NCBI GenBank assembly: GCA_964574905.1
Contig: CAZNOY010000013.1
Coordinates: 1,936 to 65,935, forward strand
DNA: 64,000 nt
From: an uncultured Citromicrobium sp.
GTDB lineage: Bacteria; Pseudomonadota; Alphaproteobacteria; Sphingomonadales; Sphingomonadaceae
Reading direction: 5' to 3'
Shown here: positions 7,118 to 60,225 of the stretch, one piece after another
Layout: every line of letters starts with the position of its first letter
Position numbering within the stretch: the first letter of the stretch is position 1
The notes under the pieces: model-generated
What the model was told of the DNA's origin: nothing
The model's database searches: none
The model's input: the letters and a program-made list of their open reading frames with translations, nothing else
Translations under genes and position numbers: made by a program

Positions 7118-7122
7118 ACCTG

Positions 7123-7728
7123 GTGCGCCTATCGATATTCCCGCTGACCGGCGCGATTCTGTTTCCGGGCCTGCAATTGCCGCTCCACATGTTCGAGCCG
7201 CGGTATCGCGCGCTGGTGAGCGATGCGCTGGCGCGTGACCGGCGGATTGCGATGATCCAGCCGAAGACGGCGAGCGAGGGCGCGCCGCTCTACGACGTCG
7301 GTTGCATCGGCAAGATCGCCGATGTCGAGGCAATGGACGATGGGCGCTACAACCTCGTGCTCGACGGGGAGAGCCGCTTTCGCGTGACCCGTGAGCTCGA
7401 CGTCGCCACACCCTTCCGCCAGGTCGAAGGCGAGCTGATCGCCGAGGATGGCGATGAGGTGCTGAGCGGCATCGAACGCGCCGGGTTCGAACGCGAGGCG
7501 CGCCGCTTCGCGGATGCGCAGGGCTATTCGGTCGATTGGGATGCGGTCGCGCAGCTCGACGACCAGTCGCTGATCAACGGCGTGAGCCAGATCGCCCCGT
7601 TCGACGCGGCATCGAAGCAGGCGCTGCTCGAAGCGCCGGACCTTGCTGCGCGATGCGAGCTTCTGATCCAGCTGATGTACTTCTTCGGGCGGCAGAACGG
7701 CACCGACGACCGGGTTACCCTGCAATAA
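7123..7728 (+). CDS. LON-peptidase N-terminal (substrate-binding) domain protein
   Basis: LSIFPLTGAILFPGLQLPLHMFEPRYRALV is typical of Lon N-domains. GTG at 7123 lies just after the preceding stop. Confidence 0.75.
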   Translation: MRLSIFPLTGAILFPGLQLPLHMFEPRYRALVSDALARDRRIAMIQPKTASEGAPLYDVGCIGKIADVEAMDDGRYNLVLDGESRFRVTRELDVATPFRQVEGELIAEDGDEVLSGIERAGFEREARRFADAQGYSVDWDAVAQLDDQSLINGVSQIAPFDAASKQALLEAPDLAARCELLIQLMYFFGRQNGTDDRVTLQ

Positions 7729-7738
7729 GGCGGTTTGC

Positions 7739-8362
7739 CTAGGCCAGCAGCGTTCCGCGCAACCCGTCGATCACGAACTGCGCCGCGAAGGCTGCGAGCA
7801 ACACGCCGAGCAGGCGTGTGATGACCGCTTCGATCCGCGTGCCCACCAGCTTCATCAGCGGCCCCGCCGCAATCAGCGCGAACATGGTGAGCAGCAGCAC
7901 CAGCGCTGCGGCGGCGAACACCACGAGGCTTTCCTCGAGGCCCGTCGCCTGATTCATCAGCAGCATGATCGCCGCAATCGCCCCCGGCCCGGCCATCATC
8001 GGCATCGCCATGGGGAAGACCGAGACATCCTCTATCTCGGGATTGGCGTTGATCTTCTCAGCGCGTTCCTCGCGCCGTTCGGTGCGCTTTTCGAACACCA
8101 TTTCGATCGCGATGATGAACAGCATGATGCCGCCCGCGATGCGGAAACTGTCCAGCTCGATCCCGAGCGTCTGGAGCAGCTGTTCCCCGAACAAGCCGAA
8201 CACGAGCAGGATCAGCCCCGCGATCACCGCCGCGCGGATCGCCATGGAGATCGTTTGCCCGCGGCTCGCATCGCGAGTCAGACCGGCATATATCGGCGCG
8301 CAGCCGGGCGGGTCGACCACGACAAAGAAAGTCACGAAGGCAGAGACGAAAAGTTCGAGCAT
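7739..8362 (-). CDS. MarC family (UPF0056) inner-membrane protein
   Basis: N-terminus FVTFFVVVDPPGCAPIY and about six transmembrane segments. Confidence 0.8.
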   Translation of the reverse strand: MLELFVSAFVTFFVVVDPPGCAPIYAGLTRDASRGQTISMAIRAAVIAGLILLVFGLFGEQLLQTLGIELDSFRIAGGIMLFIIAIEMVFEKRTERREERAEKINANPEIEDVSVFPMAMPMMAGPGAIAAIMLLMNQATGLEESLVVFAAAALVLLLTMFALIAAGPLMKLVGTRIEAVITRLLGVLLAAFAAQFVIDGLRGTLLA

Positions 8363-8386
8363 CGGGTGCCTATCGGCTGAAACGGA

Positions 8387-9151
8387 TCATTGGGCGGACG
8401 GAGGGAAGGTCTCTTCGACAACCTTCTGCCACGCGCCAGATGTATAGTAATCCCCGCGAACATACTTTGTGCCGTCCTCGCGGTGCTCCCACACCCAGCG
8501 CAGCGTTCCATCGGGCGAAAGCTGTTCGCCGCGGCGCGCAGTGCCCGCGTCGGGAAGCGCAGGCGGCGGCGGAACCGGGTCCGATGCACTCGGGCAGTCG
8601 GCGACGAGCCCCTGCACCGCGTCATAGGCGGTCGCGACGATCTCGTTCGGGTCACGCTCAACCGGCTTGGGCTGGGGGTTGTCCTCCGCTCCGCTGTCGT
8701 AAACCCACTTGTAGTCGTCCTTGATGCCCTTCCGGGCCCACACCGTCACGAAGGTGCCGACGAGCCCTTCCGGATCGAGGAACCGACCGCGGCTGACCGC
8801 CAATTGGCCATCGCAGCTCATCATCACGGTGCGCGGCGACCACTGGACTGCCTTGGGCGGGTCGTCGAGTTGCGCCAGCACGGACTGCGCAGGCATTGGC
8901 CCGTTGCCCGTATGGAGCAGCGCATTGTCGGCAGCGAAGGCACGAAAGGCGGTCCACTGGCCGTCTTCGCGCGCCGCCCGCTCGAAGGCGATCTCGCGCG
9001 AGACGATCAGGCTCGGCTGCGCGGCATAGGGTGCGCTCGCCAGCACGCGGTCGATGACCTTGCTCGGCGTGCGTGGGCCTTGCCCCCCCATGCAGCCCGC
9101 CAGCGCAAGCGCGGCACAGCCAATTGCGGCGATCCGAAACATGGCGATCAC
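8387..9151 (-). CDS. hypothetical lipoprotein
   Basis: Lipobox (AALALAGC). Start is GTG 9151, which overlaps the folD stop, or ATG 9142. No family recognised. Confidence 0.6.
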
Positions 9152-10041
9152 AGTCCCTCCGGCGGTTCGAGGCCTTCGTGCGCGTGCGCGGCGACCAGCG
9201 TGTTGCGCAGCAGAACCGCGATGGTCATCGGGCCGACACCGCCGGGCACAGGTGTTATTCCACCCGCCACATCGCGCGCTCCGGCAAAGTCGACATCGCC
9301 CACCAGCCTCCCCTTGGTTTCACCCTCGGCGGGCATCAGGCGGTTGATCCCGACATCGATCACCGTCGCGCCGGGCTTCAGCCAGTCGGCCTTGACCATT
9401 TCCGCGCGGCCCACTGCGGCAACGACGATATCGGCGCGGCGCACCACATCGGGCAGGTCCTTGGTCCGGCTGTGCGCGATGGTGACCGTCGCGTTCGCGT
9501 CGAGCAGCAGCTGCGCCATCGGCTTGCCGACGATGTTGGAGCGGCCGATGACGACCGCGTTCATGCCCGACAGGTCGCCGTGCCGGTCGCGCAGCAGCAT
9601 CATGCAGCCAAGCGGGGTGCACGGCACGAAGCCGGTGCGCCCGACCATGAGCCGCCCTGCATTTTCGACATGGAAGCCGTCGACATCCTTGCCCGGATCG
9701 ATCGCCGCGATCACCGCCTGCTCGTCGAGATCGCCCGGCAGCGGCAATTGCACCAGGATACCGTCGACCGCCGGATCGGCGTTGAGCTGCTCGACCAGCG
9801 CGATCAGATCGTCCTGCGATGTGTCCGCAGGCAGGCGATGCTCGAAGCTCTCCATGTTCGCGGCGACGGTCGCCTTGCCCTTGGAGCGGACATAGACCTC
9901 GCTCGCCGGGTCTTCGCCCACCAGCACCACGGCGAGGCCCGCCTTGCGGCCTGCCTTTTCGGCAAACGCAGCGGCGTGCGCGCCAACACGTTCGCGCAGT
10001 TCGGCCGCGAAGGCCTTCCCGTCGATCAGCTCAGCGGTCAA
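9148..10041 (-). CDS. folD: bifunctional methylenetetrahydrofolate dehydrogenase/cyclohydrolase
   Basis: [12 protein letters not shown]..., [47 protein letters not shown]. No in-frame ATG or GTG lies upstream of the conserved N-terminus. TTG at 10041 overlaps the yggT stop. Confidence 0.9.
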
Positions 10042-10334
10042 TAGAGGCTCGCAATGATAGAGTTCAGGATGATGAGGAAGATCTGCAAGCCGATGATCAG
10101 TACCAGCGGCGAGAAGTCGATCGCCCCTGTCTGCGGCAGCATGTTGCGAATCGGGCGCAGGATCGGATCGAGCAGCGAATTGATCGAGCGATAGATCGCC
10201 AGCACGAAATCGTTTCCTCGACTGACGACGTTGAACGCGAGCAGCAGGCCGATCACGAATTGCACGATGATCAGCATCACGAACACGTTCACGATCAGGC
10301 CTACGATGTCTCTGATTGCGAATAGGGCTTGCAT
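10038..10334 (-). CDS. YggT family membrane protein
   Basis: 98 aa, two hydrophobic hairpins, YggT-like pattern. Confidence 0.7.
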
Positions 10335-10409
10335 GGTGGCCCGGTCTCCTGAAGTTTCGATTGGGCGTCTTAGGAGAGTAAGACGCCTCTGGGCAAAGGC
10401 AAGGTCGCC

Positions 10410-11342
10410 CTAGCCGTTTTCGCGCGCCCTGACGAGGGAACCGGCGCCGCTGGCGGTGAAGAACTCGAGCAGCATGGCGTGCGGCACCCGCCCGTCGAGG
10501 ATGACCGCCGCCTCGCACCCTTCGCGCGTCGCGGCGAGGCAGGTCTCCAGCTTGGGGATCATCCCGCCGGTAATCACCCCCTGCGCCCGCAGCGCCGCGA
10601 TCTTCGCTTCGTCCAGCTCGGTAACCAGCCGCCCCTCGCCGTCGAGCACCCCTGCCACGTCCGTCAGCAGCAGCAGCCTTGCCGCGCCCATCGCGCCGGC
10701 AATCGCGCCGGCCATGGTGTCGGCATTGATGTTGAACGTCTCGCCATTCTCGCCCGCGGCGATCGGCGCGATCACCGGGATGAGGCCGCTGGCGGTGGCC
10801 ATTTCGATCACTTCGGGATCGATCGTCTCGGGCTCGCCTACGAAGCCCAGGTCGACCAGCTGTTCGATCGCGCTGTCTTCGACGCGGGTTTCGCGGGTGA
10901 CCTTGCGCGCTTTCACCAGCCCGGCATCCTTGCCCGACAGGCCCAGCGCGCGGCCCCCGGCGGCGTGGATCGCGGCGACGATCTGCTTGTTGATCGCGCC
11001 CGAGAGCACCATCTCGGCGATCTCCACCGTCGCCTCGTCGGTCACGCGCAGGCCGTCGACGAAGCGGCTTTCGACCCCCACCCGCTCCAGCATCGCGCCG
11101 ATCTGCGGGCCGCCTCCATGGACGACGACGGGGTTGATGCCGACCGCTTTCAGCAGAACCACGTCCTGCGCGAAGCTGGCGGCGGCGGTGGTGTCGCCCA
11201 TCGCGTGTCCGCCGTATTTCACCACGAAGGTGCGCCCGGCGTAGCGGCGCAGGAAGGGCAGCGCCTCGATCAGGACGCTGGCCTTGGCACCGGCGTCGAG
11301 GCCGGCTTCGTCGGAGGTGGCGGTTTGCGGGGTCTCGCTCAT
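10410..11342 (-). CDS. argB: acetylglutamate kinase
   Basis: [33 protein letters not shown]-type motifs. Confidence 0.92.
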
Positions 11343-11411
11343 GGCCCGCGCGCTACCGCGTGCGGAGCGGTTTGGGAAGGCGCGACGCGCGCCGCGCCTT
11401 CCGGAATTGCG

Positions 11412-11678
11412 CTATTCGTCGGGCGTGGGTTCGGCGCTCGACATGGGTTCGGGCTGCGCGGTCGCCTCGCCCGCCCCTTCTGTCGGCGCGTTGGTCATCG
11501 CGGTGTCGGGCAGTTCGACCGGGACGGCATCGGGGTCCTCCTCGGTCACGATCAGATCGCCGCCACCCTGGTCGACGGCATCGGCCTCGTAGGTCTTGTC
11601 CTCGTCGGACTGGGTGCAGGCGGCAAGGCCGAGCACGGCGGCAAGCGGCAGGGCGAGTACGGCGGTTCTGGTCATCAC
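11412..11678 (-). CDS. small acidic lipoprotein
   Basis: Lipobox (LGLAAC) followed by a D/E/P/T-rich low-complexity tail. 88 aa. Confidence 0.55.
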   Translation of the reverse strand: MMTRTAVLALPLAAVLGLAACTQSDEDKTYEADAVDQGGGDLIVTEEDPDAVPVELPDTAMTNAPTEGAGEATAQPEPMSSAEPTPDE

Positions 11679-11771
11679 AGCGGTTCTCCTGATCTGAGGC
11701 TGCTACCCGAACAAGGCACGAGCACGCGCCCCGGTTCCGACAGGAGACTCGCGCAGCAGCGCACCGGGTCG

Positions 11772-11813
11772 GCTTGCCTGACACACCTGACACACAGTCC
11801 TAAGGTCAAAAAC
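11772..11813 (+). repeat. 42-nt intergenic motif, copy 2
   Basis: gcttgcctgacacacctgacacacagtcctaaggtcaaaaac. It lies 210 nt upstream of the 12023 start on the same strand. Confidence 0.7.
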
Positions 11814-12022
11814 CCTCCCCCCGGATCGCCCCCTCCGCAGGGCACGAAAGCCGTGCCATACGCAGGCGCGCGCACTCGGGGCGATGGACGGAGGCGGGAC
11901 AGGCGGCATCCCGCCAGCATAGCATTGCACGCGGCCTGTAGGACAGCGCGCGGGCGGGCAAGCCTTGCCCGTGCCGGCCCGCGGGCTATGTTTGCCCGAG
12001 GGATTTCGAGGGGAGAGACGCG

Positions 12023-12535
12023 ATGGGCGAGCGTGAGGGTGAGACTGCACCGGGCGGAGAATACCTCGCGCATCCCTCGGGCACGCATCCTTCGGGCGCG
12101 GAGGCGACCGGCGTCACGCTGTACCGCCCGATCTTCGTCTCGGTGCTCTACCTGCTCAACCTCGTCACCGGCTTTACCGTGCTGATCGGCCTGATCCTGG
12201 CCTATGTCTGGCGCAATGACGGGGCGACGACCGAGTGGGAGGAGACGCACTTCACCTACCTCATCCGCACCTTCTGGATCGGCTTCTGGGTCGCGATCGT
12301 CGCGGGCGTGCTGCTGCTTTTCGGGGGCATCGCCCTGTCGATGGAGATTCCGCTGGCGGAAAATCTCGGCCCGGACGAGCACGGCAAGGCACCGCTGCCG
12401 ATCATCGCCGCGCTGCTGGTCGCGATGCTGCTCGGCTTCCTGATGTTCCTCTGGTTCTGCGTACGCAGCATCCTCTCGCTCGCCAATGCGGCCAACCGGC
12501 GGCCGATGCCCAGCCCGAAAACATGGCTGTTTTGA
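12023..12535 (+). CDS. hypothetical integral membrane protein
   Basis: Four hydrophobic segments, G/C-rich third codon positions. No family confidently recognised. Confidence 0.6.
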   Translation: MGEREGETAPGGEYLAHPSGTHPSGAEATGVTLYRPIFVSVLYLLNLVTGFTVLIGLILAYVWRNDGATTEWEETHFTYLIRTFWIGFWVAIVAGVLLLFGGIALSMEIPLAENLGPDEHGKAPLPIIAALLVAMLLGFLMFLWFCVRSILSLANAANRRPMPSPKTWLF

Positions 12536-12603
12536 GGGGGATAGCGATGCGTTAAGGATCGCCCTTCATCGCTTCTTGAGACCTTTCCCGCGATGGCGGA
12601 GCG

Positions 12604-13203
12604 ATGGGCGCTCCTGTCCCCTTTCGCCGGCCTTCCCCCCGCGCCGCCGCGCATCGCGGCCCCGCGGCGCGCAGAGCCGCGCCTGCCCATCGGTCGGAAA
12701 CTTCCTCGTGGACGGACGCGGCGCGCAGCCTCGGGCTGGTGCTGGTGGCGGCGCCACTGGCGGTGTTCAGCGCCGTCCTGCTCGTCGATGGCGTGCCCAC
12801 GGTGCGCGCCTCCGCCGACAGCGCGCAGGCTCCCGCGCAGGGTCGGCTGGTCGAGGCGCGGTTCGGCCCTTGCATCGGCGGCGAGCGGCACACCTGCGTG
12901 GTCGATGGCGACACGATCTGGCTGCACGACCAGAAGATCCGCATCGCGGACATAAACGCGCCCGAAATCTTCGAACCGAAATGCGAGAGCGAGCGTGCAG
13001 TCGGCATGCGCGCGACCGAGCGGCTGACGCAGTGGCTCAACGCCGCTCCCTTCGAAGTCCACCCCAACCCCGACGGCCGCGACGAGGACCGCTACGGCCG
13101 CAAGCTGCGCGTCCTCTCGCGCGGCGGATCGAGCGCGGTCGAGGTGCTGGTGGCAGAGGGTCTGGCGACGCGCTGGGGCGAGCCGCGACGGGCGTGGTGT
13201 TGA
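12604..13203 (+). CDS. thermonuclease (staphylococcal nuclease-like) family protein, membrane-anchored
   Basis: VVDGDTIWL...IRIADINAPE...RYGRKLRV...LVAEGLA, preceded by a transmembrane segment. The start codon is uncertain. Confidence 0.75.
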   Translation: MGAPVPFRRPSPRAAAHRGPAARRAAPAHRSETSSWTDAARSLGLVLVAAPLAVFSAVLLVDGVPTVRASADSAQAPAQGRLVEARFGPCIGGERHTCVVDGDTIWLHDQKIRIADINAPEIFEPKCESERAVGMRATERLTQWLNAAPFEVHPNPDGRDEDRYGRKLRVLSRGGSSAVEVLVAEGLATRWGEPRRAWC

Positions 13204-13209
13204 GGGGCC

Positions 13210-13476
13210 TCAGGCAGCCGCCGCAGAATTCAGCTTTCCGGAGGAGGCCAGCTCCTCGTGCAGCGAGCCAGCCGAAAGTTCGAGCCCATTGGGCCAAGCA
13301 AGCGCTCCGAAACTGATGAAGGCGCGCGCAAAGTAACTTTTGTCGGCAAGCGGCTCGGTCAAAACCGTTTTCGCCTTCAGGAGGTCTTCGCCGAACCACT
13401 CCCCGTGACTGCCATCGGAAAAGGCGAGCGACAGGCTGTGCGGCCCGCTCGGTTCGACATGGGTTAGCTTAATCAT
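13210..13476 (-). CDS. DUF2442 domain protein
   Basis: MIKLTHVEP...LSLAFSDG...GALAWPNGLELS pattern. The ATG overlaps the upstream gene's stop by 8 nt (ATGATTAA). Confidence 0.75.
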   Translation of the reverse strand: MIKLTHVEPSGPHSLSLAFSDGSHGEWFGEDLLKAKTVLTEPLADKSYFARAFISFGALAWPNGLELSAGSLHEELASSGKLNSAAAA

Positions 13477-13738
13477 CCTGATCGGCTCCGGGTATCTGCT
13501 CCAGAGGTAGCAGCGCTTCGGCCCGTTTCCAATTCTCAACGAGTTCGGCGGAGTGGCTCGCGACCCAATCCTGCACCAGCCGGAGCGCCTTGGGTGGAAG
13601 CTTGCCTTGCAACACCCGCCCGTCGTCGAGCGCGATCAGCGCTTCGAACCCTTGGTAGATGGCATGAATATGCGGCGGCCCGTGATCGCGATGATACATC
13701 CGGATAAGGATGCCGAAGAAGGCCGAGATTGTGGGCAT
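13469..13738 (-). CDS. DUF4160 domain protein
   Basis: MPTISAFFGILIRMYHRDHGPPHIHAIYQGFEA...LPPKALRLVQDWV...ELVENW is the canonical DUF4160 pattern. Confidence 0.8.
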   Translation of the reverse strand: MPTISAFFGILIRMYHRDHGPPHIHAIYQGFEALIALDDGRVLQGKLPPKALRLVQDWVASHSAELVENWKRAEALLPLEQIPGADQDD

Positions 13739-13784
13739 GGAGCAAATCTAGAGCGCGCCGGAATAATCGGCAAGCAAAGGGCGA

Positions 13785-14096
13785 TCAGCGCCCGCGATAA
13801 GGCTCGCAAGCGACACCATCGCCATCGCGGTCGAGATGCGGACCATACCCCGGCTCGCCATACCGGATCGGCGCGGCGCCTGCCGCGCGGGCGGCAGCGC
13901 AATTCCTGTAGGATGCGATGGCGCCGACTTCCTGCCGCATCGACTGCTCGCCCCACCGCCGATCGAAAGCGGCCTGCGGATCGACCACATCTTCCTTTGC
14001 GGAAGACCACGGCAGATTGTCGGGCATCCCGAATTTCGCGACCCCAACCACACCGAGCAGGGCGACGGTGAAGAAAACTTCCAGCAGGCGTCTCAT
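13785..14096 (-). CDS. Excalibur calcium-binding domain protein, N-terminally anchored
   Basis: C-terminal DRDGDGVACE motif preceded by NCAAARAAGAAPI. N-terminal transmembrane segment. Confidence 0.75.
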   Translation of the reverse strand: MRRLLEVFFTVALLGVVGVAKFGMPDNLPWSSAKEDVVDPQAAFDRRWGEQSMRQEVGAIASYRNCAAARAAGAAPIRYGEPGYGPHLDRDGDGVACEPYRGR

Positions 14097-14143
14097 GCGC
14101 GGGAGCGTACACGCGGTTAGTGAGCGGAAAGTGCGCCGGTATA

Positions 14144-14257
14144 GTGAACGCGGCGCATCGGCAGGCGATCAAGCGAAGGGCAATCGAACTGCTCAAAAAG
14201 CTCGGGCGGAACGACCCGTGCCCGTGCGGTTCGGGATGAGATTTCAAGCGCTGCTGC
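14144..14257 (+). pseudogene. relic of a SEC-C motif protein C-terminus with an in-frame TGA
   Basis: The frame reads ...ELLKKLGRNDPCPCGSG*DFKRCC. This fits CPCGSGxK[FY]KxCC, with TGA (14237-14239) at an x position. No protein body lies upstream. Confidence 0.45.
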
Positions 14258-14396
14258 CTGCGCTTCGGGCGCCATAATGGGGCCGGGCGGCGGGACTATT
14301 GGCGGTGAATGGTGAAGCGCTCCGGGCGGAGCGAGAGGTTCGCCCGGGTGGATCAACTGGGCGTTCTTGCAGGCTATTTTGAACGGCCGATGTAAA

Positions 14397-15212
14397 TTAA
14401 AAACTGATTTCCCTGTGAATTGTGACCGGGCTCAGGCCATAAACGTCAGCGGGACGACCAAATAAGCCGACAAAGGGTATGATGATCTGGGCGATAATGG
14501 TTGTGGAGCCGGAGAGAATTTTTTTCTCGCCGAACTTATCCAACTCGCCTCCTCCCAGTGTTACATAGTCGCCGGGCAGGGCGTCGACAATTCCGCCCAC
14601 ATGCCAATGGCCACCTATTTCAACTGGGAACTTCAGAGGTATATCGAGATCCTGTATCTGAAGAAATTCCCGCTTCACGTTAAACCAAAACACATGCTCT
14701 TCAGAAAAAAGGACGAAAATCACACCCAATGGCAGCGCTTGCGTGAATTTTATTATAATATCGGCAAGGCGCTTCCGCTCTTCCTTTTGAACTTTAGCAC
14801 TCCGCTCTTTATCAGAAGCTTCGAGCCCTTCGGCGATTTGATCAATGATCGCTTCACTTTGCAGAAGATCATTGAAAAGCTTTTGATCTACCGCAACCAG
14901 CTTGCCAGTCGCCATGATAAGTTGACCGTAATCCAACTCGCGCTGCTCAGATGCGGTCGACTTTTCTTCGACTAGCCCAACGAACTTTGTTGAATTGATC
15001 CAAAGCGGGTCGTACTCCTCGCGGAGCTGTCGATTCAGATCTGTACTTCCCAACCTTTGGCCGCTGACGGGACCGAGAGACCCCTTTACAGCACCTTCAG
15101 ACGACTTGGATTTCCCCGAAATCCGTTCGTAGCCGGTCAGTGCCCCTACCCCTTCGATTTGAGAAACCAGCGCCGCGACTCTTTCATGGTCCGCATAAAG
15201 GAAGTCGATCAT
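14397..15212 (-). CDS. orphan hypothetical protein (271 aa) in an AT-rich islet
   Basis: Clean ORF, 26 nt downstream of the nrdB stop on the same strand. Sampled 60-nt lines give 37-48% GC, against about 67% in nrdB. No catalytic motif recognised. Confidence 0.7.
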   Translation of the reverse strand: MIDFLYADHERVAALVSQIEGVGALTGYERISGKSKSSEGAVKGSLGPVSGQRLGSTDLNRQLREEYDPLWINSTKFVGLVEEKSTASEQRELDYGQLIMATGKLVAVDQKLFNDLLQSEAIIDQIAEGLEASDKERSAKVQKEERKRLADIIIKFTQALPLGVIFVLFSEEHVFWFNVKREFLQIQDLDIPLKFPVEIGGHWHVGGIVDALPGDYVTLGGGELDKFGEKKILSGSTTIIAQIIIPFVGLFGRPADVYGLSPVTIHREISF

Positions 15213-15238
15213 ATGGCCCTCTACTTGGACTAAGGGTC

Positions 15239-16312
15239 CTACTCCGCCGCTTCTGGCTGGCTACTCCCCCCAGCATCATCGCCGAACAGCCCCGGGCCGT
15301 CGTCCTCGGTGCCGTCCACCTCGTTCGCGGCCTTGGCCTTGGTGCGTTTGTCGAAGGTGCTCCACACCGTGTTCCAGTCGCCCTTGGTGGCGCCCTTGGA
15401 ATATTCGGTGGCGCGCTGTTCGAAGAAGTTGGCGTGCTCCACGCCGTTGAGCAGCGGGGTCAGCCACGGCAGCGGGTGATCGTCGATCATGTAGATCGGC
15501 TGCAGGCCCAGCTGACCCAGCCGCCAGTCCGCGATGTAGCGGATGTACTTCTTGATCTCCTTCGCGGTCATCCCGGAAACCGGGCCCATTTCGAAGGCGA
15601 GGTCGATGAAGTTGTCTTCCAGCCGCACCGACTTCTGGCAGATGTCGATGATGTCTTCCTTCACCGCCTTGGTGTAGCAGTCGCGCTCGCGCACGAATTC
15701 GTGGAACAGCCGCACGATGCCTTCGCAGTGGAGGCTTTCGTCGCGGACCGACCAGCTGACGATCTGGCCCATGCCCTTCATCTTGTTGAAGCGCGGGAAG
15801 TTCATCAGCATGGCGAAGCTGGCGAACAGCTGCATGCCTTCGGTGAAGCCGCCGAACGCCGCGAGCGTACGGGCGATATCCTCGTCCGTGTCGACGCCGA
15901 ACAGCTGCAGGTAATCGTGCTTGTCCTTCATCTCCTCGTATTCGAGGAACATGCCGTATTCGCTTTCGGGCATGCCGATCGTGTCGAGCAGGTGGCTGTA
16001 GGCCGCGATGTGGATCGTCTCCATGTTGGAGAACGCGGCCAGCATCATCTTGATCTCGGTCGGCTTGAACACGCGGCCGTATTTTTCGTGGTAGCAGTCC
16101 TGCACCTCGACATCGGCCTGGGTGAAGAAGCGGAAGATCTGGGTGAGCAGGTTGCGCTCGTGATCGGAAAGCTTCTGCGCCCAGTCGCGGCAATCCTCAC
16201 CCAAGGGCACTTCCTCGGGCATCCAGTGAACCTGCTGCTGTCGCTTCCAGAAGTCGTACGCCCACGGATATTCGAAGGGCTTGTAGGTCTTGCGGGCTTC
16301 GAGCAGCGACAT
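15239..16312 (-). CDS. nrdB: ribonucleoside-diphosphate reductase beta subunit (class I)
   Basis: YKPFEYPWAYDFWKRQQQVHWMPEEV, iron-ligand-type EAVHSE-like regions, 357 aa from the internal ATG 16312. Confidence 0.9.
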   Translation of the reverse strand: MSLLEARKTYKPFEYPWAYDFWKRQQQVHWMPEEVPLGEDCRDWAQKLSDHERNLLTQIFRFFTQADVEVQDCYHEKYGRVFKPTEIKMMLAAFSNMETIHIAAYSHLLDTIGMPESEYGMFLEYEEMKDKHDYLQLFGVDTDEDIARTLAAFGGFTEGMQLFASFAMLMNFPRFNKMKGMGQIVSWSVRDESLHCEGIVRLFHEFVRERDCYTKAVKEDIIDICQKSVRLEDNFIDLAFEMGPVSGMTAKEIKKYIRYIADWRLGQLGLQPIYMIDDHPLPWLTPLLNGVEHANFFEQRATEYSKGATKGDWNTVWSTFDKRTKAKAANEVDGTEDDGPGLFGDDAGGSSQPEAAE

Positions 16313-16378
16313 TGGTGTTCTCCGGGGCGCGGGGGCCTTCTTCGGTGGTTGCGATCTTGCAGGGTCTGCCAACATAAG

Positions 16379-16396
16379 GAATCACAGCGGTGATTC
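16379..16396. promoter_or_regulatory. perfect 7-4-7 palindrome GAATCAC-AGCG-GTGATTC upstream of nrdB (candidate operator)
   Basis: Perfect inverted repeat read directly, 67 nt upstream of the nrdB ATG. Confidence 0.4.
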
Positions 16397-16467
16397 GATA
16401 GCAAGAGCTGCGAATGGGTCGGGGATAAGCGGTGCGGGCGCTACCGCCTTTGGGCCGGGGGCCGCAG

Positions 16468-16578
16468 CTAGCCGGGCAATCCGCCGATCGACAAGGCGAC
16501 GACCATCACGACAATCACGATTCCGAGACCGATCGCCGCACCGCGGCTCGCCGCAGCCTCCCTAAAGAAGGCGCGCAT
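16468..16578 (-). CDS. possible 36-aa membrane peptide
   Basis: MRAFFREAAASRGAAIGLGIVIVVMVVALSIGGLPG. GGGG lies 6 nt upstream of the ATG. Third codon positions are mostly G/C. Confidence 0.3.
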   Translation of the reverse strand: MRAFFREAAASRGAAIGLGIVIVVMVVALSIGGLPG

Positions 16579-16707
16579 ATCACCCCGCCGACATGCAGGA
16601 TCGTATCCCCTCCCATAATCAACCGGATGGCCCAGCCCCGCACGGCTCGCAAGCGCGAACAACGCCAGGATTGGCGCGCCAGCCGTGGCCGGGCAACGAC
16701 GAACCGC

Positions 16708-16733
16708 GGAACGAAAGCGACGCGCCAGCCGTT
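16708..16733 (+). promoter_or_regulatory. EcfG-type (general stress response) promoter, GGAAC-N17-CGTT
   Basis: GGAAC at 16708-16712, a 17-nt spacer, then CGTT at 16730-16733. It ends 61 nt upstream of the DUF2171 start. Confidence 0.6.
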
Positions 16734-16793
16734 GGTTTATTGAAAGGCGAGCCGACACAGGCCGCTGAAAACGCAGAAGAATTGGAGCATTTT

Positions 16794-17036
16794 ATGTTCG
16801 AGAAGATCCGCATCAAGGAACACATGGAAATCGTCGATACGACCGGCCAGCACGTCGGCACGGTGGACGAAGTCGAAGACGAGCGCATCAAGCTGACCAA
16901 GTCGGATGCGATGGACGACCAGCACCACTTCATCGCGCTCGACGCGGTGGACAAGCTGGACGACAACCGCGTCGTCCTCAAGGAAGGGACGCCGCTGCCC
17001 GTTGGCCTCGGCAACAAGGCCACCGCGCCCGCCTGA
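16794..17036 (+). CDS. DUF2171 domain protein
   Basis: MFEKIRIKEHMEIVDTTGQHVGTVDEVEDERIKL... is the typical DUF2171 N-terminus. 80 aa. Confidence 0.75.
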   Translation: MFEKIRIKEHMEIVDTTGQHVGTVDEVEDERIKLTKSDAMDDQHHFIALDAVDKLDDNRVVLKEGTPLPVGLGNKATAPA

Positions 17037-17102
17037 CCCCTTACCCGCCTGACACCGACCGGCCTGACACCGGCCGGAAGGTTCATTCACGAAGCCCTCG
17101 CT

Positions 17103-17130
17103 CCCCGCCGGAGCGGGGGCTTTGTCTTTG
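17103..17130 (+). terminator. intrinsic terminator after the DUF2171 gene
   Basis: Stem CCCCGC/GCGGGG with loop CGGA, followed by GCTTTGTCTTTG. Confidence 0.55.
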
Positions 17131-17207
17131 GGGCCGCCAGCTGGCGGGCAAGGCGCTTGCGCGCGATGCGAGATTTCGTGTAACACTGTCTCATTGGGGG
17201 ATGAGCA

Positions 17208-19820
17208 ATGAATCGAATGGTTTGCATCGCAGCGGCGGCACTGGCGGCTGCGGCAGCCGCACCCACCTCGGCTCAGGAGTGCGCGAGCGAGACAGACACT
17301 CGCACGAAAACCGGGCAGGCGGCCCAGGATCTGGCAGAGGGGGTCGCCGCCATGATGGCGGAGATCGACGCCGAGGCGGAGGGCGAAACGGCGACCGCCT
17401 ATGCGTTTCTCGATGGCGAGGAACCGGGCAACCCGCTCGAACTGACGGCCGAGGATATCGCCTTTTTCGCCTGCGAAGAAGGCGCGGTGTCGAACTATCG
17501 CGCCTACCCTCGCCGAGAGCAGATTGCCTGGCTGGTGAGGTTGCATTCTGCGCTCGCGGGCGGAGGCACGCTCGACGATGCGGCGGAGGCGATTGCGGGC
17601 GATACCCGGATTGCACCGGCAGCCGCGCGAGAGGTGTCTCGCCTGTGGCTGATCTCGTCGATCAACGGCTTCCGGATGAGGGAATCGGATGGTGAGATGG
17701 TTGCCGAGTTCCGACGGCAGGCGTTCGACGCGCTCGAAGCGGCAGGCGGGCACCCGACGGCGCTGGCGGTGCTGGCTGAAGCTCTCGATACGGTCGACGA
17801 GTGCGCACAGGCCAATTTCGACGGTCTGCTTTCGCGCGCCGCGCCCGGCACCGACGCGGCCTGGATCATCGCAGAGGCGGCCACCTGCAGCCGGAACTAC
17901 GTGCGCGCTCTGCAAGCCGATCCCGCGCACGCCGTCGCACCAGTCTACCGCCTGGCGACCTATGGCTCGCTGAGCGATGTGCGAAGCATCCCGGTGCTCG
18001 AATGGCTGGCGAGCGATGCCGCAGTCGCAGCCGTCGCGCCCGCCGATCGGGCGAGCTACCGGAGCGGCATCACCGCGCGCCTGCTCGACCAGTTGTTCGA
18101 AAGCGGCCTGACCGAACGCGCGCTGGCGCTTTACGATGGCCTGCCATCCGAGGTGCAGGAGCGGATCATCGCAAGTGGGGCGCCCGTCGCGACCGACGAG
18201 AAATCTCGACGCAGCGTCGAAACCGGCCGCACCATCACCATTTCAGGTCACTCGGTCGTGTGGAAGGAATTCGAACCCTGGAGTGCGCTGACAACTCACC
18301 TCGCCATCGCACTCTACAACGCGGGTCGTGTGCCGGAGGCAGAGGCGCTGCTCCAATCCGACATCAGACTGGCGGAGAGCCGCAAGTGGGCCGAATGCAG
18401 GACCGATTTCGAACGTAAGACTCAGTGCGGGGACGAACCGGATTCGCAAACCATCTTGCTGCTCGACAAGCAGATGCACCAACCCGAGAGCGATCCCTAC
18501 CCGTTGGCCGAGGTCATTTTCGGGAGCGGTTTTCCAGGCTCCATCTCTCAATCCGGACCGGTCGCCGATCTCGGCTGCATCGTCTTCGCCGAGCCGCAAT
18601 ATGCCGATATCTGCGATAGCCTGCGCCAGTCGGTAGCGCGCAGCGCGACGCTCGACCTGGACGATTACGAGGCCGAAGAATCGGAGCCGGCATTCGCCGC
18701 GATCCGCGATCTGGGCCTGCCCGGCTTTGCGGCAATCGCAGCGGCAACGGACCAGCGGCTGGCGCAGGCGCGCGCCGCCTATGGCCCGCTCGACGATGAC
18801 AACTGGCAGCGCGAGCGGGTCGATCCGGTCTATCCCGACTTTGCCGTCTCCCGGCAGCCCGCCGATGCCCCGCGCCTTGCGAACGAGGGCGACGATGTGG
18901 AAGGGCCCGAATGGCCAGACAATTTTGGCGATCCGCCGCCCGCGATGTGGCCGCTACGCTGGGATGTGGACGGCGACAGGGTTACCGCGATCGCGATCTC
19001 GCCGATCTTCGATCCGGCGGGCGAAGTCTCCCCCGGCGGGTACTGGGTGTTGTTGTCGGAAAACGGCGGGAAGAGCTGGGCCGACGCGCTCTACACCGGC
19101 CTCTCGGCCTATTTCCCTTTTGTCTTCGATGCCGCATCGACCATGCGGCTGCGCGATGGCGACACGATCCACCTGCCGGTGGAGCGCGCGCTGATCGACA
19201 CCTCGACGATCACCTATCCGCCGATCGGCACGCAAACGATCGATCGCGAAGGCGGGCTGGTACTCGACCTGCCGCTCGATCGGCTGCGCGCGGACAGCGA
19301 TAATGACGGGCTCACCGACCTTGCCGAAGCGCACCTGCTGCTCGACCGCCCGCGCGAAGGGCTCGATACGCCCTTCGTGGTCGGCAACTATGTGCCCGTG
19401 ACATGCGAGGGCCCGCCCGATCGGCAGATGCTCGCGCGCGCGGAGATGTTCGCGCATATTTTCCAGACTTCGGCGCGCGCCATCGTGGAACCGGTCGACC
19501 GCCCCCCTTCGCAGATCATAGGTGGATGGAAGCGCGTGCCGACAGCCGAAAACCTGCCGCTGTTCATCGCGGGCGATCCGGCGGATTTCGCCTGCCTGTC
19601 GATCGCGCAGCCGGTGATGGTCTATTCGCAGGACGACATAGCCGAGCTGCAACGCCGCACGCCCGACTTCCGCACGATCAAACTGCCGCGCATGGTCGTC
19701 AATCGGGCGGGCACGCGCGGCTACGTCCAGTGGTCGGCGGGCTGGACCGGCGGCACGCTGCTATTCCTGTGGGAAGACGGCGCGTGGCGGGTCGAAACCA
19801 TCAGCGAGTGGATCACCTAG
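17208..19820 (+). CDS. large secreted hypothetical protein (870 aa)
   Basis: Signal peptide (MNRMVCIAAAALAAAAAAPTSAQ). One DSDNDGLTD calcium-binding-like motif. No family recognised. Confidence 0.7.
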   Translation: MNRMVCIAAAALAAAAAAPTSAQECASETDTRTKTGQAAQDLAEGVAAMMAEIDAEAEGETATAYAFLDGEEPGNPLELTAEDIAFFACEEGAVSNYRAYPRREQIAWLVRLHSALAGGGTLDDAAEAIAGDTRIAPAAAREVSRLWLISSINGFRMRESDGEMVAEFRRQAFDALEAAGGHPTALAVLAEALDTVDECAQANFDGLLSRAAPGTDAAWIIAEAATCSRNYVRALQADPAHAVAPVYRLATYGSLSDVRSIPVLEWLASDAAVAAVAPADRASYRSGITARLLDQLFESGLTERALALYDGLPSEVQERIIASGAPVATDEKSRRSVETGRTITISGHSVVWKEFEPWSALTTHLAIALYNAGRVPEAEALLQSDIRLAESRKWAECRTDFERKTQCGDEPDSQTILLLDKQMHQPESDPYPLAEVIFGSGFPGSISQSGPVADLGCIVFAEPQYADICDSLRQSVARSATLDLDDYEAEESEPAFAAIRDLGLPGFAAIAAATDQRLAQARAAYGPLDDDNWQRERVDPVYPDFAVSRQPADAPRLANEGDDVEGPEWPDNFGDPPPAMWPLRWDVDGDRVTAIAISPIFDPAGEVSPGGYWVLLSENGGKSWADALYTGLSAYFPFVFDAASTMRLRDGDTIHLPVERALIDTSTITYPPIGTQTIDREGGLVLDLPLDRLRADSDNDGLTDLAEAHLLLDRPREGLDTPFVVGNYVPVTCEGPPDRQMLARAEMFAHIFQTSARAIVEPVDRPPSQIIGGWKRVPTAENLPLFIAGDPADFACLSIAQPVMVYSQDDIAELQRRTPDFRTIKLPRMVVNRAGTRGYVQWSAGWTGGTLLFLWEDGAWRVETISEWIT

Positions 19821-19893
19821 GCGCTGCGGCAGGACCCCGCGCCGTCATGCGCGGGGCCGGGGGCCTTGCGATGCGCCATTGCTGGCGGAAGAT

Positions 19894-20667
19894 TCAGAAA
19901 TCGGCGGCGGGGTTTTCGCGCACCTTGTCCTGCCGCTCACGCTCCCGCTGTTCGGCCTGCTCGCGCGCCAGCCGCCAGGTTTCCTTGTAATTCGCGTCGA
20001 GAATGCGCGTGTCGAGCAGGAAGCTGCGGGTATATTCAACCGGGCGGCCGACCACGCTGCGCTGGAACCCGACCTTGACCGCAAGGCCCCAATAGCAGCC
20101 CTCGTGCTGCTCGATATTCTGCGGGGCGCGAAAATAGCGGAAATTGTTGCGCATCGGCCCGCATTTGCGCGGCAGCTTCTTGGGGAACCAGGCGCCCATC
20201 ACCTCGCCCCTGTCCGTATCGTACACAGGTGCATCGCCATATTTTTCGAGCAGCGCGTCCATCACGGTAGTGTAGGCGGGGTAGTGACCGCGGCGGTACG
20301 AACTCTCGCGATAGACCGCGAGCGCGCGCGGATTCTCGCTGAAATCGAAGTAGACGGTGATCCGCTCGTAAGAGGGGCGGGTGCCTTCGTGGTCCCGATC
20401 GGCCTCGAGATAACGCATCGCCCCTCGGCCAAGCGCGGTCCGCCCGAGCCTGTTCCCCTTCACCTCGAAATCGTTTGCGGCAAGGGCGACCAGCACCTGG
20501 TCGACATTCATGCCAAGCTTGAGGTTGAGGATGTCTTCCTGCGGTGCGGCATCGTAATAGGGAGCGAGCACATCGGCGAACTCGTAGTCGGGCTCCTGCG
20601 CGGCTGCCGGAACGGCTCCTGCCGCCAGCAGGCCCAGTGCAAAACCCGTGGCCTGCGCGAATAGCAT
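19894..20667 (-). CDS. secreted hypothetical protein
   Basis: Signal peptide from the internal ATG 20667 (MLFAQATGFALGLLAAGAVPAAAQ). No family recognised. Confidence 0.6.
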   Translation of the reverse strand: MLFAQATGFALGLLAAGAVPAAAQEPDYEFADVLAPYYDAAPQEDILNLKLGMNVDQVLVALAANDFEVKGNRLGRTALGRGAMRYLEADRDHEGTRPSYERITVYFDFSENPRALAVYRESSYRRGHYPAYTTVMDALLEKYGDAPVYDTDRGEVMGAWFPKKLPRKCGPMRNNFRYFRAPQNIEQHEGCYWGLAVKVGFQRSVVGRPVEYTRSFLLDTRILDANYKETWRLAREQAEQRERERQDKVRENPAADF

Positions 20668-20851
20668 ACGAAAAATCTTCAAGGCGCCCCCCCCTTCCTG
20701 TGCGTCGGGGGGCACCCTACCGGCTCGATCGGGTCATGCAAGAACGCGGGCCGGATGCACGGGCCGGGTCGATGCGCGCGCTTGCGCGCTTGGCACGTGG
20801 GCACCGACCTGCGCGGGTTCCTCTATTGCGGGGCCGCCGTGGGCACGCCGC

Positions 20852-22894
20852 CTACTGGCAGGCGAGGCATTCCTCGTAGTCGGTCTGCTCTCCGCCGGCG
20901 CCTGCGGCCAGTTCGTACTTCGCCGCTTCGGAGGTGTTGTCCGCCTCCACGCCGCCGGCAAAGCCCGCGCGCTGCACGCTCTTGCTCCGCAGGTAGTAGA
21001 GCGATTTGATCTTCCGCTCCCACGCGTGGAAGTGCAGCATCATCAGATCCCACTTGTCGACGTCGGCGGGGATGAAGAGGTTGAGGCTCTGCGCCTGGTC
21101 GATCATCGGCGCGCGGTCCGCCGCAAAGTCGAGCAGCCAGCGCTGGTCGATTTCGAAGCTGGTCTTGTAGACCGCCTTTTCCTCGGGCGTCAGGAAGTCG
21201 AGGTGCTGCACCGAACCGCCGCGTTCGAGGATCGAATTCCACACATTGGTCGAATCCTTGCTCTTCTTCGCCAGCAGTTCCTTGAGGTAGGGGTTCTGGA
21301 CGACGAAGCTGCCCGACAGCGTCTTGTGCGTGTAGATGTTGGCGGGGATCGGCTCGATGCACGCCGAAGTCCCGCCGCAGATGATGCTGATCGAGGCGGT
21401 CGGTGCGATCGCCATCTTGCAGCTGAACCGCTCCATCGCGCCCATTTCCTCGGCATCGGGGCACGGCCCGCGCTCGTGCGCGAGCATCATCGATGCCTCG
21501 TTCGCCTTGGTGTTGATGTGCTGGAACATCTTGACGTTCAGCGCCTTCGCCATCGGCCCTTCGAGCGGCAGGCCCTGCGACTGGAGGTAGGAGTGGAAAC
21601 CCATCACGCCCATGCCGACCGATCGTTCGCGGCTGGCGGAATACTTCGCGCGCGCCATTTCGGGCGGGGCGCGGTCGATATAGTCCTGCAGCACGTTGTC
21701 GAGGAAGCGCATGACGTCCTCGATGAACTGCTTGTCGCTGTTCCACTCGTCCCACTTTTCGAGGTTGAGCGAGCTGAGGCAGCACACCGCCGTGCGATCG
21801 TTACCCAGGTGGTCGCGGCCCGTGGGCAGCGTGATTTCGCTGCACAGGTTGGAGGTCGAAACCTTCAGGCCCAGGTCGCGGTGATGCTTGGGCATCATCG
21901 AATTCACCGTGTCGGAGAAGACGATGTAGGGTTCGCCCGTCGCCAGCCGCGTTTCGACCAGCTTCTGGAACAGCGAGCGCGCGTCGACCGTCTTGCGGAC
22001 CGACCCGTCGCGCGGGCTAACGAGATCGAATTCCTCGCCCGCACGCACCTTTTCCATGAACTCGTCGGTGACGAGCACGCCGTGGTGCAGGTTCAGCGCC
22101 TTGCGGTTGAAATCGCCCGAGGGCTTACGGATTTCGAGGAATTCCTCGATCTCCGGGTGGTTGATGTCGATGTAGCACGCCGCCGAGCCGCGCCGCAGCG
22201 AGCCTTGCGAGATCGCCAGCGTCAGGCTGTCCATCACGCGCACGAAGGGGATGATCCCGCTGGTCTTGCCGTTGAGGCCGACCGGCTCGCCGATCCCGCG
22301 CACATTGCCCCAGTAGGTGCCGATCCCGCCGCCCTTGGAGGCGAGCCACACGTTCTCGTTCCAGGTGTCGACGATGCCGTTGAGGCTGTCTTCGACCGAG
22401 TTGAGGTAGCACGAGATCGGCAGGCCGCGATGGGTGCCGCCGTTCGAGAGCACCGGGGTCGCGGGCATGAACCACAGGTTCGAGATATAGTCGTACAGGC
22501 GCTGCGCATGCTCCTGATCGTCGGCGTAGGCATCGGCCACACGCGCGAACAGGTCCTGATATTTCTCGCCCGGCAGCAGGTAGCGATCCTTGAGCGTTTC
22601 CTTGCCGAATTCGGTCAGGTTGTCATCGCGCGCTTCGTCGGTGACGATCTCGAACCGGCGCGGGTTGACCTTCTTGCTGTCGGACGTGTCGGCGACGCTT
22701 GCTGCGACGGCCTTGGCCATGGCCTCGGCGGCGGCGCCAGCCACCAGTTCTTCCGATCCGTGATCCTGCTTGTCCATCGCGACTGCCTTCTTTGGGGTCC
22801 TGGTCTTGGCCTTCTTCGCGCCGGCCTTGCCCGTAGGCCGCACCGTCTCTTCGCCGGTAGTCGAGATATCGGTTTCGCCTGTGCTGAATTCCAT
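20852..22894 (-). CDS. nrdA: ribonucleoside-diphosphate reductase alpha subunit (class I), no recognisable ATP-cone
   Basis: WFMPATPVLSNGG, SNLCSEI, the catalytic-site region and the C-terminal CxxC tail (ECLACQ). The first 90 or so aa are K/A/T-rich low complexity, so the true start may be internal. Confidence 0.88.
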   Translation of the reverse strand: MEFSTGETDISTTGEETVRPTGKAGAKKAKTRTPKKAVAMDKQDHGSEELVAGAAAEAMAKAVAASVADTSDSKKVNPRRFEIVTDEARDDNLTEFGKETLKDRYLLPGEKYQDLFARVADAYADDQEHAQRLYDYISNLWFMPATPVLSNGGTHRGLPISCYLNSVEDSLNGIVDTWNENVWLASKGGGIGTYWGNVRGIGEPVGLNGKTSGIIPFVRVMDSLTLAISQGSLRRGSAACYIDINHPEIEEFLEIRKPSGDFNRKALNLHHGVLVTDEFMEKVRAGEEFDLVSPRDGSVRKTVDARSLFQKLVETRLATGEPYIVFSDTVNSMMPKHHRDLGLKVSTSNLCSEITLPTGRDHLGNDRTAVCCLSSLNLEKWDEWNSDKQFIEDVMRFLDNVLQDYIDRAPPEMARAKYSASRERSVGMGVMGFHSYLQSQGLPLEGPMAKALNVKMFQHINTKANEASMMLAHERGPCPDAEEMGAMERFSCKMAIAPTASISIICGGTSACIEPIPANIYTHKTLSGSFVVQNPYLKELLAKKSKDSTNVWNSILERGGSVQHLDFLTPEEKAVYKTSFEIDQRWLLDFAADRAPMIDQAQSLNLFIPADVDKWDLMMLHFHAWERKIKSLYYLRSKSVQRAGFAGGVEADNTSEAAKYELAAGAGGEQTDYEECLACQ

Positions 22895-23181
22895 AGTCTC
22901 GCCCCTAAAGTAGTGCCCGATGGAGCGGCCTTTCCCCGCCCCACGACCGTGATCGTTCGACGCGGCAGGCCGCGCCCACCAAAATCATTCGCCTTCGCGC
23001 CGGTCTAGACGGGAATCCCAATCCGCCACGCAAAGCGCGCATACGGAGCCAATCTGCTGCGAAGAGCATTGCCCCCATTGCCGCCTGCGTCTCGAATGGC
23101 CGGGTCGGTTCCGGTCCTCATCCGCATCGCGAAGGATTGCGAACATGAATCAGCAGGCCGGAAGGCGCAAGGGGTGAGATG

Positions 23182-23197
23182 ACGCAAAAATATGTGT
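23182..23197 (-). promoter_or_regulatory. possible NrdR-box-like 16-mer (ACACATATTTTTGCGT) upstream of nrdA
   Basis: Matches 13 of 16 positions of my remembered consensus ACACAATATATTGTGT. It lies 288 nt upstream of the annotated start, with no properly spaced second box. Confidence 0.25.
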
Positions 23198-23713: not shown

Positions 23714-23812
23714 GGGAATTGGTCCTTCAATTGCCTCCGCCCGGCACGGGCGGCACACCCCACCAATGGTCGAGCGCCGCTATTTGGCCATAATTAGCAA
23801 TTGTTATAAAAT

Positions 23813-60191: not shown

Positions 60192-60225
60192 AGCGAACGC
60201 AGCCACGATCAAATGGTGAGGCGCG

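Follow-up and report, generated by a model that had tools for sequence, protein, structure and literature searches.

We analysed a window of 64,000 nucleotides (nt), the whole stretch of DNA available to us, from an uncultured Citromicrobium sp. (contig CAZNOY010000013.1 of assembly GCA_964574905.1), and studied an open reading frame (ORF) of 271 amino acids (aa), hereafter named gene X. It lies at 14397-15212 on the minus strand, directly after nrdB, the gene of the small subunit of ribonucleotide reductase (RNR). The explanation that we favour, with a probability of about 0.55, is that gene X is a stand-alone and exchangeable accessory cassette in a hypervariable hotspot of Sphingomonadales that starts at the nrdB stop codon, and that it would act as a single-protein factor in phage defence or abortive infection. 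Defence or abortive infection is our best guess for its function, given its position, its family link to the anti-phage system Dodola and the genomic contexts of its distant relatives. What makes the findings noteworthy is chiefly the coupling of a hotspot to the nrdB stop, together with a DUF6414-like protein that is solo and without known fold.

The left anchor of the slot is nrdB itself (15239-16375, minus strand; 378 codons; PF00268, E-value 4e-77). It is followed by a spacer of 26 nt (GACCCTTAGTCCAAGTAGAGGGCCAT, 15213-15238, minus strand), in which a GAGGG Shine-Dalgarno-like motif stands 4 nt 5' of the ATG start of X. The encoded protein, a distantly DUF6414-like member of phrog_9699, has an isoelectric point of 5.1 and contains no cysteine. 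Gene X has a G+C content (GC) of 49.5%, compared with 61.1% in nrdB and 65.1% in the window; of all 800-nt windows in the 64 kb, those with the lowest GC fall on this gene. An earlier note on this DNA, written from the letters alone, had described the AT-rich stretch, the ORF on the nrdB strand with its spacing and translation, and several protein features (an N-terminal segment, a G/S/K-rich stretch, a charged helix and two hydrophobic runs). All of these were recovered, down to the exact counts for the 60-nt lines at 14701, 14881 and 15301 (36.7%, 48.3% and 66.7% G+C).

A word-indexed search of 5.8 billion proteins with X returned 35 clusters, one identical, one at 85% identity, most others at 50-59% and one at 40%. 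Nearly all of them are 257-290 aa long, and their alignment contains 53 invariant columns. The ratio of nonsynonymous to synonymous differences per site (pN/pS) against orthologues is about 0.15-0.35. From these same-length homologues, the invariant columns and the low pN/pS, we judged X to be a real gene: it is a conserved protein-coding gene on which purifying selection acts. The searches that found relatives of X need conserved peptides, so that the prevalence figures given here are lower bounds. Around the gene, no Rfam match was found at 12000-26000 and no tRNA gene at 9000-24000, the direct and inverted repeats flanking X were short and chance-like, and tblastn of a plasmid collection with gene X gave no match.

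Relatives of X occupy the same junction in other genomes. The X-clade member is the next recognisable same-strand gene after nrdB in 15 of 16 distinct loci (the window, L003, L004, L006, L007, L010, L013, L016-L021, L112 and L113), and the relatives found there share 36-59% identity with X. According to record titles, the hosts belong to Erythrobacter, Parerythrobacter, Pontixanthobacter, other Erythrobacteraceae, Novosphingobium, two Sphingobium species and UBA2369; most loci are labelled Sphingomonadales and a few are labelled more broadly. The gaps between nrdB and X, called or extended, are mostly 3-78 nt, with larger ones in L007 (562 nt) and L019 (293 nt). An ORF stands between the two genes in L007 and L020 (183 aa) and in L010 (88 aa). 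The L017-L021 DNA alignment is unbroken from nrdB through X and ends at the end of X. The recurrence of relatives at this junction, with a divergence that tracks that of nrdB, speaks against a one-off insertion.

Some of these loci showed features of their own. The 183-aa ORF, found in two Erythrobacteraceae (L007 5446-5997 and L020 5583-6131), has a hydrophobic C-terminus and no Pfam match, its copies are 48% identical, and it may represent a second cassette gene, or else a subclade-specific partner. A small conserved partner gene was considered and dropped: the 88-aa ORFs upstream of three relatives are mutually unrelated, and one of them looks by eye like a transposase-like fragment. In L018, a contig of a metagenome-assembled genome, two to three frames are needed to read each of nrdB, X and argB (6832-8770 and 13830-14703), which points to assembly indel errors rather than to a real X pseudogene. 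L022 (Erythrobacter sp. ECS31B5) is the sole one of the 16 loci that is not linked to nrdB. Its X-like N-terminal fragment (MSEATSSPLLDFLYADHERVASF, 7977-8093) starts 5 nt past the nadA stop and ends at a premature stop just before an insertion sequence transposase gene (DDE_Tnp_1_4, 8247-9596), showing that members of this family can settle behind a different housekeeping gene and can be inactivated.

To look at the slot independently of X, we searched Joint Genome Institute (JGI) metagenomes with the C-terminal half of NrdB and collected 80 loci (in the range L032-L111) with NrdB 77-96% identical; they are the best NrdB matches and are not taxonomically balanced. An X-like gene was present in 0 of the 66 loci with at least 900 nt downstream; the loci were screened with 66 family members in tblastn and with a profile hidden Markov model run without filters. 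In most of the sampled loci the first 0.9-1.5 kb past nrdB is AT-rich. The longest ORF is on the same strand, is at least 120 aa long and starts no more than 150 nt from the nrdB stop in 33 of 68 loci, and 26 of these 33 ORFs have a GC at least 5 points under that of nrdB. On clustering, 53 of the 68 first downstream ORFs were singletons. In a listing of the junctions, the loci cease to resemble one another precisely at the stop codon of nrdB (...GCGGCGGAG-stop). As a rule, the first occupant shares the strand of nrdB and has its start 0-90 nt past the nrdB stop, and several occupants begin by overlapping GTGA or TAATG at that stop; such starts imply dependence on the nrdB transcript.

The slot occupants were called mechanically as the longest ORF, and the Pfam results for 42 of them are counts for the set, not gene by gene, and without a genome background. 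Read in this way, the occupants include defence- or toxin-like families (SIR2_2, Fic, HipA_2, PemK, DUF3800 and DUF4145), helicases and ATPases (UvrD helicase, AAA_15/AAA_21/SMC-type, HATPase_c_3 and AAA_16), DNA methylases (MT-A70, found 4 times, one C5 and one N6/N4) and other families (DUF5343, found 4 times, and DUF7946/DUF7947). The 3' end of nrdB is a fixed position with variable content across related genomes, where the other occupants include known defence, toxin or restriction-modification types. In the literature, we found no paper in which nrdB is mentioned in connection with a hotspot of defence or integration of this kind.

The extent of the exchanged DNA could be read from the nearest relative, L032, whose nrdB is 94% identical at the DNA level. 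The blastn alignment breaks off within nrdB, at 15267, and is taken up again at 14127-13792, and L032 holds another AT-rich ORF, of 267 aa, in place of the segment 14128-15238 (minus strand). This break marks 14128-15238, comprising X and a convergent ORF with a SEC-C motif, as the exchangeable unit in the lineage of the window. The convergent ORF (14120-14299, plus strand; ...GRNDPCPCGSG*DFKRCCLRFG... by translation) carries an in-frame TGA and is either a pseudogene or affected by a sequencing error. L037, L072 and L088 contain short DNA matches to its region, and the distance of these from nrdB varies. The idea that X is followed by a conserved terminator or right-boundary element was rejected: the shared match of 60-70 nt is the SEC-C-motif gene on the opposite strand. 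The first gene shared with L032 to the right of the slot is an Excalibur-domain gene (13785-14096, minus strand; PF05901, E-value 7e-17).

The composition of X is foreign to every host in which it was measured. The gene is AT-rich in 11 of 11 loci, with a GC of 35-52% and a GC at third codon positions (GC3) of 25-55%, against a GC3 of 60-91% for nrdB. Among the X-carrying loci compared, nrdB is 77-95% identical and X only 35-80%. Saturation was found at the synonymous sites of X (pS 0.78-0.92), also in cases where nrdB is not saturated, and may reflect older alleles or an absent codon-bias constraint. Synonymous divergence was also considered for separating vertical descent from allele exchange and was dropped, since X is saturated and the codon bias of nrdB is extreme, leaving no clean comparison. 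The horizontally acquired single-gene module proposed in the earlier note is supported in the sense that X is accessory, compositionally foreign and a single gene.

The position of X would also suit a lineage-specific partner of RNR that acts in the maintenance, assembly or regulation of NrdB and descends vertically with nrdB on the same mRNA. In E. coli, an accessory gene, yfaE, encoding a 2Fe-2S ferredoxin, lies directly after nrdB, and this precedent speaks for such a partner, together with the same-strand adjacency in 15 of 16 loci, the mostly short gaps, the purifying selection on X and a divergence that correlates with that of nrdB. Yet unrelated genes take the place of X in all 66 sampled loci, despite an nrdB 77-96% identical, the GC3 of X is far under that of nrdB in every host measured, one relative follows nadA, and the distant relatives lack linkage to nrd genes and stand in defence or phage accessory contexts. 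X cannot be a YfaE-type ferredoxin because it has no cysteine, and Pfam detected in it none of the RNR accessory domains (ferredoxin, flavodoxin and glutaredoxin; YfaE, NrdI and NrdH type). We consider a partnership with RNR very unlikely.

Genes of endonuclease type recur in the region past nrdB. A gene of about 350 aa with an HNH_2 domain was seen in L006 (6841-7914), L009 (1299-2345), L085 (1664-2734) and L091 (5057-5905), with copies 50-66% identical, and DUF559 endonuclease-like genes in L003, L006, L007 and L113. The HNH_2 gene is a second recurrent resident of the hotspot. It was dropped as a candidate partner of X, the same gene being found in slots with and without X. A recombinase gene was not seen in any of the loci examined.

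Such genes give some weight to an explanation of X as a selfish or addictive element without benefit to the host, toxin-like or of homing type, that is kept because it is joined so tightly to an essential gene at its 3' end. Free-standing homing endonucleases of T4-like phages, such as mobE between nrdA and nrdB, classically target nrd genes, and the sporadic distribution of X, its precise insertion by a conserved essential gene, its foreign composition that persists across hosts and its conserved Asp and Arg residues, which could form a catalytic site, would all be in keeping with this view. It is made improbable by the protein itself, in which Pfam, PADLOC, NCBIfam and fold comparison revealed no nuclease, toxin or antitoxin domain; among homing-endonuclease domains, HNH, GIY-YIG, LAGLIDADG, His-Cys and PD-(D/E)xK were all absent by Pfam, and Foldseek found no nuclease fold. 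X also lacks a conserved partner gene, the upstream 88-aa ORFs being unrelated and HNH_2 occurring with and without X, and notable flanking repeats are missing. The many unrelated occupants favour a passive hotspot over homing driven by X.

At the family level, X is not the orphan that the earlier note had taken it for. A profile search of 1.84 billion cluster representatives returned 805 representatives with an E-value of at most 1e-3 and 495 of at most 1e-10, almost all full-length and of about 270-330 aa. In PHROGs, X matches phrog_9699 over its full length (E-value 2.3e-30, aa 2-270 on profile positions 12-269 of 270). The only Pfam match is to DUF6414 (PF19952), with aa 1-67 on model positions 1-68 of 283 and an E-value of 0.009. 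This match gains strength in the relatives of X: DUF6414 was matched by 27 of 32 close relatives with an E-value of at most 0.1 (best 1e-6) and by 45 of 66 wider relatives with an E-value of at most 1e-3 (best 3e-14). By sequence, then, X appears to be a distant branch of DUF6414 and not a scored member. The N-terminal pattern that the earlier note had remembered as being of DUF type is real and corresponds to this weak match; the profile scans it had proposed, done here with Pfam, PADLOC and NCBIfam, gave no homology to a characterised activity.

DUF6414 links X to a known defence system. Dodola is reported to consist of a DUF6414 protein (DolA) and a ClpB-like protein and to be active against phage SPP1 by an unknown mechanism (bioRxiv 10.1101/2024.10.26.620412; PMC11514479). 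A ClpB-like or AAA+ chaperone-type partner was not found adjoining X or its relatives in the loci examined, including the scanned neighbours in the window. X is not a Dodola component, either by a match to a PADLOC model or by the presence of a ClpB-like partner gene.

The distant relatives of X (21-29% identity) have no linkage to nrd genes. One in Agrobacterium lies in an island with VapBC, AbiTii and a SIR2-STAND gene, another adjoins an ABC-type ATPase and an RNA ligase, and a further one stands alone between metabolic operons. Copies in Bordetella phages adjoin the integrase, the copy in an Acinetobacter phage belongs to an accessory block of the tail region, and copies on IMG/VR contigs are found among phage regulatory and replication genes. 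The survey of homologue neighbourhoods that the earlier note had suggested thus yielded a defence island together with phage and prophage accessory regions, and a defence function would be one interpretation of them.

Another interpretation is that X is a phage-derived moron, left or brought by a prophage, and serves superinfection exclusion or counter-defence rather than host immunity. In favour of this are the membership of X in phrog_9699 over its full length, its AT-richness compared with the host, and homologues with 22-26% identity that occupy accessory positions in temperate Bordetella and Acinetobacter phages and on IMG/VR contigs. These phage homologues are very distant, and the clade linked to nrdB lies on chromosomes, where its divergence has gone along with that of nrdB. 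Neither an integrase, nor a tRNA gene, nor a phage structural gene was found near X in the window or in related loci. A moron origin of this kind seems unlikely.

Structure prediction, also suggested in the earlier note, produced a good model for which no solved fold was matched. An AlphaFold model from 32 close sequences (model 1) was mediocre, with a predicted local distance difference test score (pLDDT) of 66; a model from 61 sequences including relatives at 21-25% identity (model 2) reached a pLDDT of 81.3 and a predicted template modelling score of 0.75. Model 2 is an alpha/beta protein with strands at aa 2-7, 98-109, 164-170, 174-179, 198-211 and 258-268, helices at 9-20, 69-87, 110-129, 139-159 and 235-251, and a low-confidence hairpin over the G/S/K-rich region. 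The most conserved segment of X is formed by codons 1-23 (MIDFLYADHERVAALVSQIEGVG, 15144-15212, minus strand), which start the sole Pfam-matching stretch (aa 1-67 on DUF6414 model positions 1-68) and in which D3, Y6, D8, R11, Q18 and G23 are invariant even in relatives at 21-25% identity (alignments A1, A2 and A3). Codons 24-66 (15015-15143, minus strand) are G/S/K-rich with variable columns in A1, and took the form of a long hairpin of low confidence, or of disorder, in the models (pLDDT of 27-41 for model 1, 45-61 for model 2). The charged helix spans aa 139-159. Across the wide family, the invariant residues are D3, Y6, D8, R11, Q18, G23, D68, P69, W71, G103, W176, G201, W203, G207, R253 and R267, of which the polar ones would be the obvious candidates for a functional site.

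The two hydrophobic runs had led the earlier note to suppose that X might act on membranes. As an effector of this type, X would insert both runs and depolarise or lyse the infected cell. The 19-residue hydropathy maxima of X (1.95 and 1.82) are borderline and similar across the family, and run 2 (codons 237-252, TTIIAQIIIPFVGLFG, 14457-14504, minus strand) was modelled as a helix (aa 235-251) with only moderate confidence (block pLDDT 70-78), next to low-confidence loops. The maximum of 1.95 falls on run 1 (codons 160-170, LPLGVIFVLFS, 14703-14735, minus strand), where the same window has charged residues in most homologues. This run of 11 hydrophobic residues was modelled as a beta strand (aa 164-170, block pLDDT 93-96); it is too short for a membrane helix and is probably part of the protein core. 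Cholesterol-dependent cytolysins are among the top-ranked fold matches, which are not significant, and with E-values of 0.8-3 and template modelling scores (TM-scores) of at most 0.15 they amount to noise. X is acidic overall, with a grand average of hydropathy of -0.04, and neither a signal peptide nor a clear transmembrane helix is evident. Membrane action is therefore not borne out by the model, and we give it only a slim chance.

The four alternatives above, in which X is an RNR factor, a selfish element or one of homing type, an effector acting on membranes or a phage moron, are all less likely. An exchangeable cassette in a hotspot at the nrdB stop accounts for both the foreign composition of X and its rarity (0 of 66). 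It also accounts for the fidelity to one position if exchange proceeds via nrdB homology, and for the correlation with nrdB divergence if exchange takes place mostly among relatives or if residence is long. According to our proposal, X would have no promoter of its own and would be expressed by read-through from nrdB, perhaps with translational coupling. A consensus scan of the nrdB-X interval found no terminator-like or promoter-like site, which makes the read-through supposed in the earlier note plausible and, in our judgement, likely. The cassette would spread and be replaced by recombination with nrdB as the left homology arm, which would explain why it is bound to one locus despite its rarity. 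The product would be a soluble alpha/beta protein that acts alone, without a ClpB-like partner, in phage defence or abortive infection, with a functional site possibly drawn from the invariant D3, D8, R11, Q18, D68, R253 and R267. As for the defence effector suspected in the earlier note, the company it keeps was confirmed, since the slot is shared with defence, toxin and methylase genes and distant relatives stand in a defence island; we infer its function from these associations.

Several results weigh against this proposal. The DUF6414 match of X scores 16.2 bits, below the gathering threshold of 25 bits, and covers aa 1-67 only. PADLOC v2 (PADLOC-DB 2.0.0), which we take to hold Dodola/DolA models, gave no match with X at E-values up to 10, one chance-level JetA match (E-value 0.04) with the 32 close relatives at E-values up to 1, and none with the 66 wider relatives at E-values up to 0.01; NCBIfam gave no match with X. 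Nothing in X is homologous to a characterised activity that would speak for defence. Foldseek comparisons with the PDB (both models) and BFVD (model 1) gave best E-values of 0.2-0.45 with TM-scores of at most 0.2, and sequence searches of the PDB with profiles from A1 and A3 gave chance matches only. Occupants that are not defence-like also exist in the slot, including DUF5343 and many more without known role, and the set was compiled by the mechanical calls described above. The proposed read-through was deduced from consensus scans alone. Lastly, the identity matrices of X and nrdB correlate (Mantel r 0.70, p 4e-4), and this correlation fits long vertical residence as well as exchange among relatives.

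A bolder form of the same proposal, which we hold to be possible but doubtful, joins these elements together. In Sphingomonadales, the nrdB stop would be a dedicated dock for promoter-less immune or toxin cassettes, with at least 30 unrelated AT-rich genes, including X, joined to it at a distance of a few nucleotides and some of them overlapping it with their start codons. Their expression would be wired to the RNR transcript, and X would be a solo effector, of a fold unseen in solved structures, that does alone the job of DUF6414 in Dodola. Such wiring would tie cassette expression to replication or deoxynucleotide (dNTP) stress, which phage infection provokes.

If the cassette proposal is right, X would be a single-gene candidate for a new anti-phage or abortive-infection activity, coming from a large uncharacterised family with a confident model and no known fold. 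As a solo relative of the DUF6414 component of Dodola, it could help to explain what this domain does without an ATPase partner. The hotspot could be mined in a poorly studied and environmentally abundant order, any gene directly past nrdB being a candidate defence gene, and the coupling to an essential, stress-responsive gene would suggest a way of regulating immune genes. If the proposal is wrong, X is one more hypothetical gene of a variable region.

The wider neighbourhood of the slot was also inspected. On the other side of nrdB, about 4.5 kb separate it from nrdA (20852-22894, minus strand). This interval holds, on the plus strand, a DUF2171 protein (16593-17036) and an 870-aa protein without Pfam match (17208-19820), as well as a 273-aa ORF without match (19894-20715). 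It is variable in related genomes too, where PilZ, GGDEF, radical SAM and DUF559 genes were seen, which indicates plasticity on either side of nrdB. Three bases upstream of the annotated nrdB ATG lies a perfect 7-bp palindrome (GAATCAC-CGCT-GTGATTC, 16379-16396), which could be an operator or an mRNA hairpin. A search of the whole window for the NrdR-box consensus, allowing up to 3 mismatches, gave no match, and control by NrdR is accordingly not claimed. Overlapping DUF4160 (13469-13738) and DUF2442-like (13210-13539) ORFs lie on the minus strand in the variable region that also holds X; DUF4160 and DUF2442 form a common paired module that is of unknown function or toxin-antitoxin-like. This pair is followed by an SNase-like gene (12604-13203, plus strand). 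The second-lowest GC region of the window, at about 55% in 800-nt windows, is at 59800-62100.

Among known arrangements at nrd genes, X resembles E. coli yfaE in lying immediately past nrdB on the same strand, and differs from it by its 271 aa, its lack of cysteine and of a ferredoxin domain, its foreign composition and its rarity among nrdB loci. With the mobE-type genes beside the nrd genes of T4-like phages, it shares a sporadic distribution, fast evolution and precise insertion by a conserved nrd gene; unlike in them, no endonuclease domain or fold was detected in X, and many unrelated genes share its site. Within phrog_9699, which X matches over its full length and which IMG/VR homologues match with an E-value of 1e-50, the phage members are only 22-26% identical to X and are found in phage accessory regions, not after nrdB.

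X is of the same size class (about 270-330 aa) as the DUF6414 protein of Dodola, and its N-terminal D-F-L-Y-x-D-x-x-R-V segment fits the start of the DUF6414 model. Unlike the two-gene Dodola system, it is solo and bound to nrdB, without an adjoining ClpB-like gene and without a PADLOC match. The slot itself is best compared with the core defence hotspots of Pseudomonas aeruginosa (PMC10250203) and the hotspots of E. coli (PMC10121019), which likewise occupy a fixed position between conserved genes and hold different defence, toxin-antitoxin and methylase genes in each genome. Unlike in those hotspots, the left edge of the slot described here is the stop codon of an essential gene.

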